A stretch of DNA of 45,043 bases from Gemmatimonadaceae bacterium (GTDB lineage: Bacteria; Gemmatimonadota; Gemmatimonadetes; Gemmatimonadales; Gemmatimonadaceae). Shown piece after piece: positions 9,001 to 24,000 of this stretch. The stretch lies in contig JBBDYA010000006.1 of NCBI GenBank assembly GCA_040902005.1, forward strand, positions 1-45,043, in the 5' to 3' direction. The position numbers were made by a program. Positions within the stretch are counted from its first letter, which is position 1. Each line of letters begins with the position of its first letter.

Positions 9001-12000
9001 ACGCCTGGTTTCAGGCTCATCGCCTCGACAACCAGGCGGGCGGATCGCAGGGACACCGGCTTGCCCCGTGAGGGAAGCGCCTCGCGGCAAGCCGCAAGAA
9101 GTCCAGCACAAGATCCGCTACGGCGCGCCGGGGGCGGGGATGAAGCCCACACACCCCTCACGCTCGCCGAGATGAAGCATCTCTACAAGTACCTCGCCGA
9201 CTCAGTCGCGATGCCCCGCCAGGACCACGTAGCACATTGGTGGAGAGATGAGCTTTACCCAGGCGACGGGATGGCCTAGCCGCCTGGGCGGCCGGGTATG
9301 GCGGTGCCGTGGCAGGCGATGCACACCGATGGGTTCTTCTCCAGCATCCGCGCGGCGTTGAATCCCGGCCCGTGCGGATTGAACCGGAACCCACCGCCCA
9401 CCGCGGAATGACACGCGGTGCAACTACGCTCGGCGTGGCACGATGCGCACGTCTCGAGGCTCTGCCGGGCGGCCTGTCCGTGGCCCAGACTGAAGCCGCG
9501 GAAGGCATCGTGGTATCCCTTCTGGCCGATACGCGACGCGGCCACGAGTCCCGCCTGCTGGTGGCAGCTCTGGCAGAACTGCGCCGGATTGTGACAATCG
9601 CTGCAGCTGGACTGGCGGGCATACGCCGCGCTGGGATGGCGCGTGAGGAATCCCTGAGGATGGTAGAGGCTCTGCCGGCCGCCGTCCGGCCGATGGCACT
9701 CGAGGCACGTCGAGCGCGCGTGACACGTCTCGCACGAGGCTGGCCGGGCATTGGCCTCCGGCCCGTGTCCCTCGCGGAACGCCAGCGTGTGGCTCGCCGG
9801 CGCGGCGCGCGTCGTTTGCGCGCCCGCGGCGCGCCCGGAGGACCCTGCCGGCAGGGCCGCCACGGCTGGTGGCACGTCCCGAACGTGGCAGGTCAGGCAG
9901 CTCTCCCGCGCGTGGCAGGTGGCGCAGGTGGCCGTCGCCCGCTGTGCGTCCCTGCCATGCTGCCGCAGGAAGCCCGCGGACGCATGACTCGCCGGCGCCG
10001 ATTGCGTTGACGCGTAGGTGGGTGACCGGTCGTCGAGCGCCAGCGCGCGAATCACGGGCGACTCGGGGGCATTCACGTGGCACCCGAGACACAGGTTGCG
10101 CGCGTGGCACGTGGCGCAGCTGGCGGCGATGGCGACGGCCCCCGGGTGCGCGCCGGGAACCCGCGCGGCACGGCCGTGGCCACCTTCCAGAAAATTGCGC
10201 TCACGATGCGACGCCGGCACGGGAAAGGTCCGGATGTCTTCGCGAGTCAGCGCCGGCGCGTCGGTGAGCCGCACGTGACAGGTCGCGCAGGCTTCAGCCG
10301 GAACGTCCACGTGCGACCCCGTGAGGCCGTGGCAGTCGAGGCACTGCCCTACCACGGCGTGGCGCACCGTCATCCGCGGCGCGTCCGGCTCGTTGTGACA
10401 CGAGGAACAGGTTCGGGCCCGCACGCTATCGGCCGGATCGGCGGCGGCCGACGCGCGACGGTGCCCGTCATGCGTGAACCTCAGGTTCCCCCCGCGCGGG
10501 CCGGTCCGCGGTTCCCACTCGACGCGCGGTTTCACCTCGCCGTCATGGCACGACGCGCACTGCGCCGGCTGCGGCCAGAGCGGCTGCCCGGGCTCGACGA
10601 TGCCCGCGTGACAGGTGGCACAGAGTGGAAACAGCTTCTCGTGCTTGTCGTGAGGGAATCCGGCGCGTTCCTGGCGCACAGCAGCCGGCGCGGCGAACAC
10701 GGTGCCGGCGACCAGCGCCACGACGATCACGGCCGGGAGCACACGCCACCGATGATTCATCGTCCCATCCTGCGCGCGGGCGGCAAGGGGGTTCGATCGG
10801 CACCGGATCCGAACGCCAGGCTCACGCCGGCGCGGAGTCGCACCTGCGACAGCGACGATGCACTCGCGTCGGGCCGCTCGCGTTGATCGTCGACGAACGC
10901 CACGTCGCTCCACACGCGCCGCTGCACCGTGGGCTTCCACTCCACGCGACCGCCGATCCAGTGACTCGTCGCGTCGTAGTACCGCAGCTCGAGGGGCCGC
11001 GCCATCGTTCCGCCGTACACATCCACCGACAATCGCTCGCCGAGCGTGCAGGTCACGGCACCATCGGCGAACCGACCCGCGGCGCCCGGCCCGTGTTCCA
11101 GCCCATAGTTGCCGTCCAGTACCCAGCGCGACCCCACCGTGGCGCGAGCACCGACGCTGGCGCGCCACCCGCGATCCTCCAGCAGGGGCACGAGCCCGGT
11201 GGACACGTTCGCTGACTCGTAGCGATACCGTTCGCCGCGCCCGTGCAACGAGAGCCGGCCGGACGGCCGCACTTCCACGGACGCGTTCAGCGCGTTGTAG
11301 GGCACGGGACTGAACGCGCCCCACAGCGTCCACAGACTGAAATACGGACGATACCGCCGCGCGCCGCCCGACACGGCGAAGCGCGGTTGCAGGTATGTGA
11401 GCGTGAGGTCCGCCGACCCGAGATGACCCTCCGCGATGTTGTAATCCAGTCCGCCGGCCGCCCGCACGGAGGCGGTGCGCGCCACGAGCGAGATCGCGGT
11501 GCGTTCGGAGACGAAGTAGTCGTCCTGTGGATCCACCTCCCGGCGGTACTCCGCGCGCACGTCCACATCGCGGCGCCGCCACGACGCCTCCGCGCCCGCC
11601 ACGAGTTGCCGGTCGCGCGGCCGCCACTCGTCGAGCGGGTTGAGCGCGGGGCTCGTCACCGGCAGCGCGGCGGCCTGCCCGAGCCCCCAGCCTCCGTACG
11701 CCGCGAAGTCGAGCGAGGCCTTGTCCCAGCGAGCGCCGAGCCACCCGCCGTCGAACCCCAGCCGCTCCAGTCGCGATGACAGCAGCTGACGACCGGCGCG
11801 CCCCGTGAATGCCGGACGTTGGTACTCGAAGTATCCCTCGATGAGCTGACCCGCCGGTTCCACGCCGGGCCACACCCGATCGCGCCCGAGGTCCGCCAGC
11901 AGCCGGCCGGTTGCGCGCAGCGTCAGCCCGGGAACGCCCAGCCCCCACATGACCATGCTCGCGGAGGTCGTCACCGGCACGCCGCGCAGTTCGGGGCCCG

Positions 12001-21000: not shown

Positions 21001-24000
21001 CGGTTGAAGGAAGATCTCAAGACGGAACCGCGGTTCTGGTACTACACGGACTGAGGCCCTCGTGCACCTTCGACCCTTCGCGCGACACGCGCTGCACACG
21101 GCGACCTCCGGGGGACGGCGCTATCACCTGTGGATGGGCACCCTGACGCTCATCATGCTCGCGGGGGCGTACGCGTACGGCATTCAGCTGCGCTACGGTC
21201 TGGGCGTCACCGGGATGAACGACCACGTGAGCTGGGGACTCTACATCTCCAACTTCACGTTCCTGGTCGGGCTGGCGGCGGCCGCCATGATGCTCGTGCT
21301 TCCCGCCTACATCCTCCACGACGTGGATTTCAGTCGCGCCGTGCTCATGGCGGAGGCTGTCGCGGTGGCCGCGCTGGTCATGTGCCTCACCTTCGTGGTG
21401 GTGGACATCGGCAACCCACTGGGCGGCTGGCATCTCATGCCAGGCATCGGCTACCTGAACTGGCCGCGGTCGCTCCTGGCGTGGGACGTCCTGGTGCTCA
21501 ACGGCTACCTGGCGCTCAACCTCGCCATCCCATTCTACATCCTCTACACCCGGTACAGCGGGCGGACACCCGACAAGAAAAAGTACCTCCCCTGGATGTA
21601 CATCGCCGTCATGTGGGCGGTGAGCATTCACCTGGTGACGGCATTTCTGCTCGCGGGACTGCCCGCGCGGCCGTTCTGGAACACGGCGCTGCTGGGCCCC
21701 CGGTTCCTCGCCTCGGCATTCACCGCGGGTCCGGCGTTCGTGATTCTTCTGTTGTGGTTCATCCGGCGCGAAACGAACTACGAGATCGCCGACGGCGCGT
21801 TCACCAAGCTCGCGGTGGTCACGACGGTGGCGGCGCAGATCAACATCGTGATGCTCGGCTCGGAGCTGTTCTACAAGTTCTACTCGCCGACGCACCACGG
21901 CATCAACGCGAAGTACCTCTTCTTCGGCCTCGATGGCCACACCGCGCTGGTGCCGTGGATCTGGTCGGCGATTGGCCTGAACGTGCTCGCGACGACCGCC
22001 CTGATGATCCACCCCCTGCGCCGCAATCCGCAGTGGCTGATGCCCGCCTGCGCGGTGCTGTTCTTGAGCATCTGGGTCGAGAAGGGCCTGGGGCTGGTGG
22101 TGCCGGGGTTCATCCCGTCACCGCTCGGGGAGATCGTCGAGTACACGCCGAGCCTGGTCGAGCTGGGCGTCACGGCAGGCATCTGGGCGCTCGGCATGTT
22201 CGTGCTCACGGTGCTCGTGCGAGTGGCCCTGCCCATCGAACTGGGCGAGGCCCGCAGTCCCTACATCGATGACGCACGGGTCACGACGATCGTGCGTCCG
22301 CGCAGCAGACGGTCCAAGCCGAAGGACACGCGCCCCGTGCGAACAGGGGGACCACGGCCGCGGGCGGCCGCCAGCGCATTCCCTCAGAGAGGTGATCGAC
22401 ATGACGCGACACAATCCGAACGACACCCGCTACTCGGTCGCCGCGCTCGCCGCGGGGCTGGTGGGCGGCGCCGGGCTGGCCGGCGCGCTGTTCCTGGTGG
22501 GCGCTCCGCTGCCGCTCGTGGCGGTCGCGGGCGTCGCGCTGTGGATGTTCCTCGCCGCAGCCATCAAGTACACGGACCAGTGGGAAAAGGCCGTGCTGAT
22601 GCGGCTCGGCCGCTACCGCGGACTGCGCGGCCCCGGCTATTTCACCGTCATCCCGATCCTCGATCGGATCGCGTACACCATCGATCGGCGCATCCGGACC
22701 ACCGCGTTCGGCGCGGAATCATGTCTCACGCGAGACACCGTGCCCGTCAACGTCGACGCCATCGCGTTCTGGATCGTCCGCGACGCGGAGCGCGCCGCCC
22801 TCGAGGTGCAGGATTACGACGAGGCGGTGATTCTGTCGGCGCAGACCGCGTTGCGCGACGCCATCGGCAAGCACGACCTCGCGGAGTTGATCCAGTCGCG
22901 CGTCGAGCTCGGGCACGGACTCAAGGCGGCGCTCGAGGTCAAGATGCAGAATTGGGGGATCGAGGTGCAGTCGGTCGAGATCCGCGATGTCATCATCCCG
23001 GCCGCGCTCGAGGATGCCATGTCGCGTCAGGCGCAGGCCGAGCGCGAGCGGCAGGCCCGCATCATCCTCGGCACCGCGGAGACCGAGATCGCGCACAAGT
23101 TCGTCGAAGCGGCGGACGCGTACCGCGACCATCCCGTCGCGCTGAACCTGCGCGCCATGAACATGTTGTACGAAAGCATCGTCAAGCGCGGCTCGCTGAT
23201 GGTCGTGCCGTCGGGGCTGGCCGATTCGCTGAACGTGCCCTCGCTGCTTGGTGTCGCGGGCGCGAGCGGACTCGTGCCGAAGGAGGGCCTCGATGGCACC
23301 GTTGCCCCAGCCGGGGGGGGGGGGGGGCCAGGGTCGAAGCCCGCGCCGCTGGCGTAGGCGACTGGAGTCGACTGGCGACGTGGTCAGCGTGGCCGCGCGA
23401 GCTCCACGGCCGCGCGGATATCGGCGTCGTGGTCGGCGTACTCGGGGAGGGCGCGCGCCCGCTCCGTCGGTTCCGCGGCGACCAGTCGCCGGCGGAGGGC
23501 GGCCGCCGCCGGGGCATCCCCGCGCGCGTCGGCCACGCGCGCGGCGAGCGAGAGTCCCAGCAAGTGGTCGCGGTGGCGCGCAAGAATGGTGTCGGCCTGC
23601 GCAGCCGCGCGCGCTGCGTCACCCATGACGAGCGCCACGAGTCCCATGTCGTAGCGCCGGTGGGCGTCCAGCGGCGTGAGGACCTCGAGCGCGCCCAGTG
23701 CCATCGACCCGAAGAACGCGGCGCTGTCCGCCTTCCCTTCGCTGGAGAGCCGCATGACACGGTTGAACAGCCGATCGGCCTGTTCCTCCGGCGACATGGA
23801 CGAAATGTCCGGCGCCTGCATGGGCCTCGCGCCAAGCGGCATCGCGCCCGCGGGGCCTTGCCGCGTCTCTGCCTCGCGCGAATCGAACCCGGCCACGGTG
23901 AGCGCGACGAGCGCGAATACCGCGATCGCCGGCAGTCCCCACCGCAACGCGGGCGCGAGCGCCGACGCAGATGGCGTGGCGGCGCGCGGCCCCCCCCCCC

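Follow-up and report, generated by a model that had tools for sequence, protein, structure and literature searches.

MtrCAB is a porin-cytochrome conduit, for whose MtrAB part a solved complex is available. NrfD proteins with ten transmembrane helices have unusual partners in the 'catalytic' place, among them the cofactor-less QrcB (Qrc) and ActB together with penta- or hexahaem cytochromes (alternative complex III, ACIII), according to PMC6303296. Here, we describe a gemmatimonadotal locus in which a conduit built on the MtrCAB principle adjoins a Nap-derived gene set resembling Qrc and ACIII, and we lean, by a modest degree, toward reading the two as linked respiratory modules that serve extracellular electron transfer.

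The window, the whole stretch of DNA analysed, comprises the first 45,043 nucleotides of contig JBBDYA010000006.1 (hereafter C6) from a 93% complete assembly of a Gemmatimonadaceae bacterium; the host is described as a soil or sediment bacterium. On the minus strand lie genes for a periplasmic 16-haem cytochrome c, MHC16 (494 aa, 9276–10760), a 493-aa outer-membrane β barrel (10757–12238), an inner-membrane-anchored 18-haem cytochrome, MHC18 (12235–14301), and an 8-haem lipoprotein, MHC8 (14321–15874; 517 aa from the ATG at 15874), with 16, 0, 18 and 8 CXXCH motifs. Beyond a 338-bp divergent intergenic region (15875–16212), the plus strand encodes a 778-aa, Tat-exported NapA descendant (16213–18549), the 5-haem cytochrome c5 (18546–19358; 5 CXXCH, N-terminal signal or anchor), the 4-haem cytochrome c4 (19358–20074; 238 aa, 4 CXXCH, lipobox-like N-terminus ...AVGC), a Tat-exported four-cluster FeS subunit of the DsrO/QrcC/NrfC type (20071–21054; Pfam Fer4_11), a DsrP-like, quinone-interacting membrane subunit of the NrfD family (21062–22330; Pfam NrfD) and an SPFH/Band-7 membrane protein (22401–23357; Pfam Band_7). 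Genes for a Zn-ribbon membrane protein, ccmH, a ccmG-like thioredoxin and ccmF (23384–27460, minus strand, Pfam assignments) come next, and ccmE, ccmC and ccmB follow ccmF, reaching approximately 29796. A GGGRAWYCCCYGAC-like motif upstream of MHC8 is present in this intergenic region, in that of a second copy on contig C10, and in approximately 11 of 19 from relatives.

The two copies form paralogous blocks, C6:9264–26078 and C10:16830–1, each holding the four-gene module and, beside it, the NapA-like gene, the 5- and 4-haem cytochromes, the Tat FeS protein, NrfD, SPFH and ccmHGF. The C10 cytochromes have the same CXXCH counts (16, 18, 8, 5 and 4), and tblastn identities of 77, 76, 69 and 77% across the module reproduce those in the genome-wide survey's note; on the nap side its 77 and 89% stood, and its 68 and 65% for the middle two are now 69 and 59% (the latter over a long ORF). 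The block is longer than the 9276–21054 that the note had given it, extending through SPFH, the Zn-ribbon protein, ccmH, ccmG and part of ccmF up to the C10 contig end. NrfD, previously credited to C10 only, is also present in C6, where it is 92% identical to the C10 copy and has lost that copy's stop codon, leaving the frame open to 24199 across the SPFH gene. The copies might instead come from two strains or species in one bin, as would fit their 59–92% identity, the end of C10 inside ccmF, and a NapA tree that puts both in an unresolved trio with a relative's sequence (L008). We consider this very unlikely: a partner at 55% identity or better exists for just 40 of the assembly's 1766 long ORFs, no long syntenic run other than the C6/C10 block is present, synteny breaks sharply at C6:9264 / C10:16830 with the remaining 32 kb of C10 lacking a twin, and contamination is 2.5%.

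The 493-aa protein has no match in Pfam or NCBIfam and falls outside the MtrB_PioB family by sequence. AlphaFold2 folds it as a β barrel of approximately 22–24 strands (pLDDT 86.8, pTM 0.78, 43-row alignment), in agreement with the earlier model, and Foldseek aligns it with large outer-membrane barrels (the FimD usher at TMq 0.49, PirA at 0.48 and MtrB, 6r2q_B, at 0.40). Its more than 1203 relatives are without a functional name throughout ('hypothetical protein' or unnamed), as are the closest ESM Atlas clusters, and its wide distribution, first seen in 131 of 301 genomes, extends to 179 of 401 sampled Gemmatimonadota genomes. MHC16, which has a signal peptide and a single N-terminal hydrophobic segment (residues 10–28) and matches Pfam Cytochrome_C7 and an MtrC/MtrF domain, is predicted to place its C-terminal third inside the barrel, with interface residues at approximately 289–483. 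The complex model scored 0.77 (median of three runs) versus 0.00 for the best control, although this may partly reflect likeness to the solved MtrAB complex; contacts agreed between runs at 87% or better, with partner pLDDT at least 74. Of 157 solved complexes, 116 attain this mark, as do 2 of 215 mismatched pairs; these figures serve as a rough guide only, as own alignments were used.

MHC18 has two transmembrane helices (57–75 and 94–112), a predicted NrfH/NapC-type head (CXXCHxM), nine haems, a Pro/Ala-rich linker of approximately 100 aa and nine further haems. The match to NrfH is weak: residues 99–155 hit TIGR03153 at E 1.2e-7, below the family cut-off, and the sole significant PDB match is NrfH 2j7a_C (E 6e-4). 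Together with these hits, its CXXCH[VI]M motif, kept in 53 of 59 relatives, supports the predicted head. Since such a head would be anchored in the inner membrane, the conduit would have its own quinol entry. MHC8, whose lipobox-like ...FLNGC we read from the sequence, ends in a haem-free part of approximately 200 aa, matches Pfam Paired_CXXCH_1 and an MtrC/MtrF domain as well as the DmsE and GSU2203 families of NCBIfam (all below cut-off), and likely forms the outer face.

Gene order adds to this picture. Among 80 relatives' loci, a biased sample consisting of the best-scoring of 533 and drawn from kindred rather than independent genomes, 56 have all four genes, and 55 of these show the order MHC8-MHC18-barrel-MHC16, extending the 20 of 20 counted before. 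Together with the family-less barrel, the MHC8 lipobox, the MHC16 signal peptide and the complex model, this supports the survey's reading of a porin-cytochrome conduit, one that would share the building principle of MtrCAB while using a barrel of a new family. In our model, MHC18 would act as a quinol dehydrogenase through its NrfH-type head, periplasmic MHC16 would plug the barrel with its C-terminal third, and MHC8 would sit on the outer face.

The adjacent operon had been labelled a nap nitrate reductase. Its largest product does resemble NapA most closely (PDB 3ml1, E 7e-193) and retains a Tat signal and the [4Fe-4S] motif, yet it scores 744 bits against the NCBIfam NapA equivalog cut-off of 904, and its molybdenum site is degenerate. 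Tyr175 aligns to the Mo-ligand Cys152 of 3ml1_A, His406 to the catalytic Arg392, and Gly176 replaces the Met next to the ligand; Tyr and His also occupy the first two of these positions in the C10 copy, and all 24 conduit-adjacent NapA-like genes in relatives' loci lack the ligand Cys. (The Sec-type Fdh of this genome, on contig C30, has TGA-His in the ligand column.) Across 23 non-Cys sequences the column holds Tyr (10), His (6), Ala (3), Phe (2), Thr (1) and Arg (1), with Ser in a further genome (G216), and columns 176 (former Met), 260, 360 (Met360), 361, 664 (Arg664) and 763 (Lys763) vary as well. These sequences, which retain the Tat signal, occupy one side of a branch of length 0.3 (SH-aLRT 100; 23 of 39 rows, and 38 of 55 in a larger tree), and the nearest Cys-type rows share their operon. 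The non-Cys form descends from Cys-type NapA. Purifying selection persists, with dN/dS of 0.17 between the C6 and C10 copies and 0.12–0.17 in five non-Cys pairs versus 0.09–0.14 in two Cys-type pairs. Close relatives carry just the name 'molybdopterin-dependent oxidoreductase' at NCBI.

The survey's note had wired the conduit to periplasmic nitrate reduction and, through it, to nitrate-dependent oxidation of extracellular Fe(II). An active enzyme of this kind would explain the similarity to NapA, the Tat signal and the FeS motif, and it could draw on the adjacency to the conduit in three arrangements and on two relatives (G039 and G266) with a Cys/Arg-type NapA beside theirs. For this organism we hold it to be extremely improbable, as in both copies the ligand Cys, its Met neighbour and the catalytic Arg are replaced, close relatives differ from one another in the ligand column, and the score lies below the equivalog cut-off. 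In G259, G391 and, weakly, G239, a NapD gene immediately precedes Cys-type napA; none was found in this genome. Fe(II) oxidation at the expense of nitrate is likewise not supported for this genome, and no NarG was found above its cut-off in the 93% complete assembly. We infer that the Mo cofactor is probably absent; having lost its molybdenum active site, the NapA-like set would probably serve in electron transfer rather than in nitrate reduction.

Alternatively, the protein could still be an enzyme that binds molybdenum or tungsten and acts on a new substrate, with the conduit delivering or removing its electrons; its altered metal site would then have a Tyr/His ligand or, like that of arsenite oxidase, none from the protein. 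Of 166 columns invariant in 16 Cys-type NapAs, 117 (approximately 70%) remain at least 90% conserved in the non-Cys set, all 23 sequences keep the four FeS cysteines and 21 keep the FeS-to-pterin Lys86, dN/dS is low as in Cys-type NapA, and new residues have become fixed at former active-site columns (His406 in 19 of 23, Asp407 in 22, Gly670 in 20 and Asp209 in 23). The retained columns and Lys86, together with the newly fixed His406-Asp407 pair, might indicate that the active site was altered and not lost. We nonetheless judge this unlikely, because neither the ligand column nor the six other variable columns are fixed, NapD was not found, and a Tyr ligand is not known from any bis-PGD enzyme.

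The remaining subunits point elsewhere. c5, found in Cys-type and non-Cys operons alike, has a weak NapB-like stretch (residues 93–138, Pfam NapB E 3e-4, below cut-off). The FeS subunit scores 186.8 bits as DsrO (cut-off 200) and 151.6 bits as QrcC (cut-off 400), whereas the NrfD subunit, with approximately ten transmembrane helices by hydropathy, exceeds the DsrP cut-off of 350 bits at 398.6; in non-Cys operons, and in some of the Cys type, SPFH comes after NrfD. By analogy, we read the nap side as most likely a Nap-derived quinone:cytochrome module resembling Qrc and ACIII. Its FeS subunit is DsrO/QrcC-like, and its NrfD-type subunit has about ten helices, as in the NrfD proteins that go with QrcB and ActB; the NapA-like protein would be the non-catalytic counterpart of these two. 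The set running from the NapA-like protein through c5, c4, FeS and NrfD to SPFH would thus have arisen from a Gemmatimonadota-type Nap by loss of the Mo active site, and would work as a quinone:multihaem-cytochrome oxidoreductase that keeps its former catalytic subunit as an FeS-bearing, non-catalytic one.

How closely the two modules are tied can be judged from relatives. Their adjacency, earlier counted in 5 of 20 loci, stands at 24 of 80, and at 11 among the 24 loci that have full 10-kb flanks. The nap-like set is divergent upstream of MHC8 in 19 loci, convergent downstream of MHC16 in four (one of which, L042, has no napA before the contig end) and co-directional downstream of the conduit in two. 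Non-Cys NapA occurs in approximately 21–23 of the 401 genomes (21 verified, G144 and G378 making up the remainder) versus 179 for the barrel, and 16 of the 21 verified genomes have the barrel no more than 16 kb away on that contig. The link is therefore facultative, as proposed, in that most conduits lack the nap-like set, but stronger than had been thought. Because most conduits lack this set, and the conduit has a predicted NrfH-type head of its own, the Nap-derived module is not required for it.

These same observations could mean that the gene sets are mere neighbours in an anaerobic-respiration or cytochrome-maturation island by ccm, under common regulation and without direct electron exchange. 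The conduit's own quinol-dehydrogenase head would agree with this, as would the relatives without the nap-like set, in which ccmF-G-H-Zn takes the same place directly upstream of MHC8, and two genomes (G315 and G379) with large contigs that carry the non-Cys operon away from any conduit. We find it unlikely, however, given that adjacency survives three rearrangements and holds in those 16 genomes, that all ten genes of G039 run in the same direction in a single array, with 163 bp separating the modules, and that a catalytically dead subunit under purifying selection must have an electron partner.

We thus favor two linked modules, between which electrons would be exchanged; through the Nap-derived one, the conduit would gain a second link to the menaquinone pool. 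For relatives such as G039, whose NapA site is intact, the idea of a nitrate-linked conduit may still apply. In the organism studied here, the physiological role would be metal-oxide or humic respiration or, with electron flow reversed, electron uptake, rather than nitrate reduction.

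The locus consists of two divergent gene sets separated by a 338-bp spacer. On the minus strand lies a tightly packed four-gene conduit encoding an eight-haem lipoprotein (MHC8, 14321–15874; eight CXXCH motifs and a lipobox-like N-terminus in the ORF listing and translation), an 18-haem cytochrome (MHC18, 12235–14301; 18 CXXCH motifs from the same sources), a 493-residue barrel protein devoid of haem motifs (10757–12238) and a 16-haem cytochrome with a signal peptide (MHC16, 9276–10760; 16 CXXCH motifs), with 4-bp start/stop overlaps at the MHC18/barrel and barrel/MHC16 junctions. 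The plus strand carries a nap-like set: a NapA-like protein that lacks the Mo-site residues (hereafter NapA*, 16213–18549), cytochromes with five and four haems (c5, 18546–19358; c4, 19358–20074), a Tat FeS protein (20071–21054), an NrfD protein (from 21062) and an SPFH protein (22401–23357). These are followed on the minus strand by the gene of a Zn-ribbon membrane protein and by ccmH, G, F, E, C and B, which form an operon; to the left of the locus are genes for an integrase and a Ser/Thr kinase, among other unrelated ones. About 100 bp upstream of MHC8, the spacer (15875–16212) contains a GGGGAATCCCCGAC-like motif that may be a regulator or promoter site; it reads GGGAAGTCCCTGACA here and GGGGCAACCCCCGACTG in the corresponding region of a second copy of the locus on contig C10 (C10:9867–10207), and it recurs in roughly 11 of 19 divergent intergenic regions of relatives. 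FNR/CRP-type palindromes gave a single match across 21 such regions, and none in either copy from this genome.

The second copy is extensive. Positions 9264–26078 of the window's contig, C6, match C10:16830–1 in tblastn and tblastx searches, and the match stops at C10:1 only because C10 ends within ccmF. Haem counts agree between the copies, and identities are 77% for MHC16, 76% for the barrel, 69% for MHC18 and 77% for MHC8 on the conduit side, and 77% for the NapA-like protein, 69% for c5, 89% for FeS, 92% for NrfD and 89% for SPFH on the other. Two strains sharing one bin could yield such a pair in an assembly of 3.64 Mb in 135 contigs (93% completeness, 2.5% contamination); however, pairs at 55% identity or more involve just 40 of its 1766 long ORFs, and the C6/C10 block is the sole long syntenic run, so we consider a mixed bin unlikely and dropped it as the main explanation. 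Single copies of ccmC, ccmB and ccmE were found. A tyrosine recombinase/integrase (149–1225, plus strand) lies 8 kb to the left of the sharp block end at C6:9264; the duplicated segment may have been mobilised as an island. In the C6 copy, NrfD has lost its stop codon: its frame is open over 21062–24199 (plus strand), continuing for about 620 codons across the SPFH gene in a different frame, where C10 NrfD ends in RPVRTK followed by TAG. A 755-base contig of run X1, possibly the source sample, spans 21613–22367 of this region with two unplaced differing letters, and an assembly error is a possible source of the lost stop.

By sequence, NapA* is clearly of NapA descent. Its PDB matches are NapAs (E 7e-193 to 1e-146), formate dehydrogenases scoring much worse, and like the NapAB enzymes (3ML1, 2NYA, 1OGY), its best match overall, it has a Tat signal, a [4Fe-4S] motif and the same domain order. 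It nevertheless scores under the NapA equivalog cut-offs (744.1 bits versus 904 for NF010055; 730.6 versus 930.55 for TIGR01706), and close relatives are named only 'molybdopterin-dependent oxidoreductase' at NCBI and NapA at JGI. In a HMMER alignment to Cupriavidus necator NapA (3ml1_A), ARHCMASA is replaced by TRLYGASA, and GTAREVGT by SSVHDAGT. Counted on the printed alignment, Tyr175 of NapA* stands at Cys152 and His406 at Arg392, which we take to be the Mo ligand and the catalytic arginine, respectively. The ligand site reads Tyr175-Gly176 in C6 and Tyr-Ala in C10, with His at the Arg392 column in both. As a check on the alignment, 16 NapAs with cysteine in this column (Cys-type) and a Sec-type formate dehydrogenase encoded on contig C30, which has TGA-His there, aligned as expected of the ligand position.

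These substitutions extend well beyond this genome. All 24 conduit-adjacent NapA-like genes in relatives' loci lack the cysteine, with Y, H, A or T in its place; a regular expression found Y or H at the ligand place in 92 of the 120 closest database relatives, the pattern going unmatched in the other 28; and the Arg392 column holds H, E, S, Q or a gap in 23 of 23 relatives without the cysteine (non-Cys). The Tat signal (RRSFLK in NapA*) retains its twin-arginine motif in non-Cys sequences, the [4Fe-4S] cysteines C49, C52, C56 and C84 (CX2CX3C...C) are invariant in 23 of 23, and Lys86 is present in 21 of 23. Among 166 columns invariant in the 16 Cys-type proteins, 117 stay at least 90% conserved across the 23 non-Cys sequences and 27 fall below 50%. 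Nei-Gojobori dN/dS values of 0.12–0.17 for five non-Cys pairs (0.17 for C6 versus C10), against 0.09–0.14 for two Cys-type pairs, indicate that the non-Cys gene is maintained rather than decaying. Among the lost columns, some are fixed to a new residue (His406, Asp407, Gly670, Asp209) and others vary freely (175, 176, 260, 360, 361, 664, 763); a changed but working metal site is one possible reading of such a maintained protein, and a site without a Mo cofactor, as suggested by the loss of both ligand and arginine, is the one we prefer.

The accessory genes also depart from those of NapAB. NapD (PF03927) was not found in this 93%-complete genome or in genome G039; the Cys-type napA genes of G259, G391 and, weakly, G239 have it immediately upstream. 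The c5 protein contains a weak NapB-like stretch. Instead of the NapC or NapGH that accompany NapAB, the quinol module here consists of NrfD and FeS subunits together with a tetrahaem cytochrome. Unlike NapA, then, NapA* lacks the Mo-ligand cysteine, the adjacent methionine and the catalytic arginine, and has no NapD that we could find. The genome-wide survey's note had proposed a nitrate reductase at this locus; the Cys-to-Tyr and Arg-to-His changes, the sub-cut-off score and the missing NapD argue against it in this genome, whose 'nitrate reductase' is, judged by its residues, a NapA relic.

Elsewhere in the assembly, Pfam Molybdopterin matches are confined to the two NapA* copies and to proteins on contigs C30, C118, C45 and C42 (the last fragmentary). 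No NarG scored above its cut-off, and our queries found no recognisable respiratory nitrate reductase in the 93%-complete genome. The C30 protein (C30:8684–10558, minus strand) is a molybdoenzyme of the formate-dehydrogenase type with selenocysteine (TGA-His) and 30% identity to NapA*, which indicates that the organism makes Mo/W-bisPGD enzymes and uses selenocysteine; C118 encodes a cytoplasmic Cys-type molybdoenzyme. On C45 (18913–23057, plus strand), a 1222-codon open frame carrying a Molybdopterin domain precedes homologues of FeS and NrfD. The arrangement resembles ActB-ActC of alternative complex III (ACIII), so a second complex organised around a molybdopterin-type subunit without cofactor may exist in this genome.

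The partners of NapA* resemble those of quinone-linked complexes. The FeS protein scores best with DsrO (187 bits) and QrcC and also matches Pfam Fer4_11, and the NrfD protein, with about ten hydrophobic segments, exceeds the DsrP cut-off (398.6 versus 350 bits). Multihaem cytochromes (c5 and c4), a four-cluster FeS protein and a 10-TMH NrfD thus occur in one operon, whereas the scores are far below the Qrc equivalog cut-offs (QrcB 62.8 versus 440, QrcC 151.6 versus 400, QrcD 52.4 versus 570 bits). As described in the text of Duarte et al. (2018, PMC6303296), the 10-TMH NrfD branch pairs with non-standard 'catalytic' partners, among them QrcB and ActB, which lack a cofactor and occur with penta- or hexahaem cytochromes, and menaquinone is reduced by Qrc and oxidised by ACIII. 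Molybdopterin clusters that include NrfD have been reported from Planctomycetota and KSB1 (PMC10732223), and one such cluster follows a porin-cytochrome conduit (PCC) on its downstream side. Like Qrc (QrcABCD of sulfate reducers) and ACIII (ActABCDEF), the set here combines a Mo-bisPGD-type 'catalytic' subunit that probably lacks a working site with lipid- or membrane-anchored multihaem cytochromes, an FeS protein with four clusters and a quinone subunit of the 10-TMH NrfD type; unlike them, it has two cytochromes (five and four haems) and an SPFH gene. By this analogy, NapA*-c5-c4-FeS-NrfD would act as a quinone:cytochrome c oxidoreductase in which the former terminal reductase no longer takes electrons for nitrate. 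Electrons at c5/c4 would pass to, or from, other periplasmic cytochromes, of which the neighbouring conduit is the obvious partner; here we infer the exchange as well as its direction and the absence of the cofactor.

The gene order of the conduit is conserved. In 80 relatives' loci, a biased sample comprising the best of 533 matches in species-representative genomes, all four genes are present in 56, with order and strand kept in 55 of these; L024 is rearranged, and the other 24 loci are cut by contig ends. The barrel occurs in 179 of 401 sampled Gemmatimonadota genomes and its family is, within the sample, essentially confined to this phylum. Two Gemmatimonadota-type loci, L053 and L040 (barrel 65–73% identical), lie in metagenome-assembled genomes (MAGs) labelled Candidatus Kuenenia stuttgartiensis and Candidatus Binatia, and are probably binning errors rather than gene transfers. 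The barrel has no match in Pfam or NCBIfam, and so belongs to neither MtrB_PioB nor another named porin family there; its more than 1203 relatives (337 clusters at 50% identity) are 'hypothetical' or unnamed, none with a functional name, and its ESM Atlas neighbours are only unnamed Gemmatimonadota clusters.

Structure prediction supports a conduit role. AlphaFold2 with a 43-row alignment folds the protein as an all-beta barrel with about 24 strand elements (pLDDT 86.8, pTM 0.78), and Foldseek matches the model only to large outer-membrane barrels (FimD usher, TMq 0.49; PirA, 0.48; MtrB, 0.40), the best having 22–26 strands, which suggests a pore wide enough for a cytochrome. Complex predictions of the barrel (residues 23–493) with MHC16 (25–494) scored 0.77, 0.79 and 0.77, with at least 87% contact agreement and partner pLDDT of at least 74, and three controls all scored 0.00. 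The mark for such scores, attained by 116 of 157 solved complexes versus 2 of 215 mismatched pairs, is a rough calibration because author-built alignments were used, and part of the score may reflect likeness since a solved MtrAB complex exists. The predicted interface joins many barrel strands (residues 28–483) to MHC16 residues 289–483, a plug-in geometry with the periplasmic cytochrome modelled inside the barrel. Conserved gene order, barrel fold and predicted pairing together support the survey note's reading of the module as a porin-cytochrome conduit.

As in MtrCAB of Shewanella (PDB 6R2Q) and the Pcc/Ext systems of Geobacter, a large outer-membrane barrel gene lies amid multihaem cytochrome genes, and as in MtrCAB and Pcc one cytochrome is periplasmic and predicted to insert into the barrel while another is a lipoprotein. 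In contrast to MtrB, the barrel is smaller, at about 470 mature residues; the cytochromes carry 8, 18 and 16 haems rather than the 10 and 10 of MtrCAB; and the family range differs from that of MtrCAB and Pcc/Ext. The putative quinol-dehydrogenase head also differs, being fused to the 18-haem protein of the same operon instead of residing in a separate CymA. In MHC18, two TM segments precede CIGCHVM and a further CXXCH, and this part can be aligned with NrfH, a weak match (TIGR03153, E 1.2e-7, 31.9 bits versus a cut-off of 134.2; 2j7a_C, E 6e-4). The CXXCH[VI]M motif is present in 53 of 59 relatives covering this part, the other six having CXXCHIF. With this NrfH-like head, the conduit seems to reach the quinone pool through a component of its own. 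The succession of a TM helix, CXXCHxM and a second CXXCH resembles the inner-membrane quinol dehydrogenases NrfH, NapC, CymA and ImcH, and the head would match the role of CymA and ImcH, which serve the Mtr and Geobacter conduits; unlike all four, MHC18 has a second TM helix upstream, 14 further haems and a long Pro-rich linker. This Pro/Ala/Ser-rich, low-complexity stretch of about 100 residues (approximately 400–500) separates two nine-haem halves and could allow the distal half to span the periplasm. For Gemmatimonadetes, Table 1 of PMC6295460 lists two ImcH homologues and one CbcL-type homologue. PMC13264449 sorts the PCCs of cave MAGs into groups, some of them paired with NapC/NirT- or ImcH-like proteins; we saw no Gemmatimonadota case in its text section on these PCCs. 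Neither this conduit in Gemmatimonadota nor a clade of NapA without the cysteine turned up in full-text searches of literature outside subscription journals and supplements.

Searching the 401 genomes with NapA* separated three groups, at 54–77% identity, at 43–48% and distant Fdh-like proteins. The non-Cys form occurs in 21 genomes, mostly with Y at the ligand place (F in G315 and G379, R in G110, S in G216). Nine genomes (G039, G090, G239, G259, twice in the latter, G266, G327, G366, G391 and G394) instead keep ARLCM and VREVGT in proteins 59–65% identical to the query and accompanied by all or part of c5-c4-FeS-NrfD; FeS and NrfD were not seen for one G259 copy, and the G327 and G366 operons are cut by contig ends. 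The 43–48% group is ordinary NapA, mostly with a short NapB-like partner; selenocysteine in this clade of about 45% identity was considered and rejected, as the internal 'stops' fall outside ORFs. In maximum-likelihood trees, the non-Cys sequences (23 of 39 rows, or 38 of 55 after removing the long-branch L098, L100 and L101) occupy one side of a single branch (SH-aLRT 100, length about 0.3), and the Cys-type operon rows adjoin them. Midpoint rooting served for drawing only, so the trees are consistent with a single loss but do not prove it. NapA* still shares about 60% identity with live NapA from within its phylum, which makes its descent traceable and distinct from that of QrcB and ActB. 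In G315 (L089, G315:C10:492000–511900), the non-Cys operon is followed by a second, tandem FeS-NrfD-SPFH set, 73, 71 and 83% identical to the query.

The two modules are adjacent in part of the loci. A nap-like set lies beside the conduit in 24 of the 80 loci, and in 11 of the 24 loci that have full flanks; a further locus, L042, has the module without napA before its contig ends. The arrangement is divergent upstream of MHC8, as in C6, in 19 loci, convergent downstream of MHC16 in L039, L042, L046 and L076, and co-directional downstream in L054 and L055. The barrel is within 10 kb on the same contig in 15 of the 21 verified non-Cys genomes and at 15 kb in G110; it is on another large contig in G315 and G379, and on different contigs in G359, G146 and G338, where adjacency cannot be judged. 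Among Cys-type genomes, G039 has a single co-directional array, MHC8-MHC18-barrel-MHC16-NapA-c5-c4-FeS-NrfD-SPFH, with a 163-bp gap between MHC16 and napA. In G266 an MHC8-like gene diverges from napA at a contig end, and in G239 the conduit is 13 kb away with ccm between; the two are apart in G259 (one of its contigs), G391 and G394, no barrel was found in G327, and napA is on short contigs in G090 and G366. As the genomes are kin, these counts are descriptive and not a test. Loci without a nap-like set often carry ccmF-G-H and the Zn-ribbon gene upstream of MHC8, and the modules may possibly be merely co-located in a cytochrome-maturation neighbourhood. We offer tentatively, as a somewhat improbable reading, that the link is ancestral and functional: the G039-type array would couple an intact nitrate reductase (Cys, Arg) to the conduit, and the present lineage, to which both copies in this genome belong, would later have lost the Mo site, its Nap complex becoming a Qrc-like menaquinone:cytochrome module that serves the conduit. 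The survey note's pairing of conduit and nap genes was largely right as a gene observation, and its idea of nitrate-dependent Fe(II) oxidation, while not supported here for the reductase, may still apply to G039-type relatives.

What stands out is a Qrc-like module of Nap descent, linked to an unnamed conduit that is widespread. The presence of the conduit in 179 of 401 genomes suggests that extracellular electron transfer is common in this abundant soil phylum. If the NapA* site is dead, gene surveys and automatic annotation as 'nitrate reductase NapA' credit soil and sediment Gemmatimonadota with too much nitrate-reduction potential. Live and dead forms share about 60% identity, a phylum and an operon type, and the family offers a young, traceable example of how Qrc/ACIII-like complexes may arise. 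Were the ancestral link true, NapA* would add a third, independent and datable example of molybdoenzymes recruited as electron-transfer scaffolds, and the G039-type array would offer a candidate enzymatic route by which extracellular Fe(II) or minerals are oxidised with nitrate, making relatives with an intact NapA in a conduit array concrete test targets for nitrate-dependent iron oxidation.
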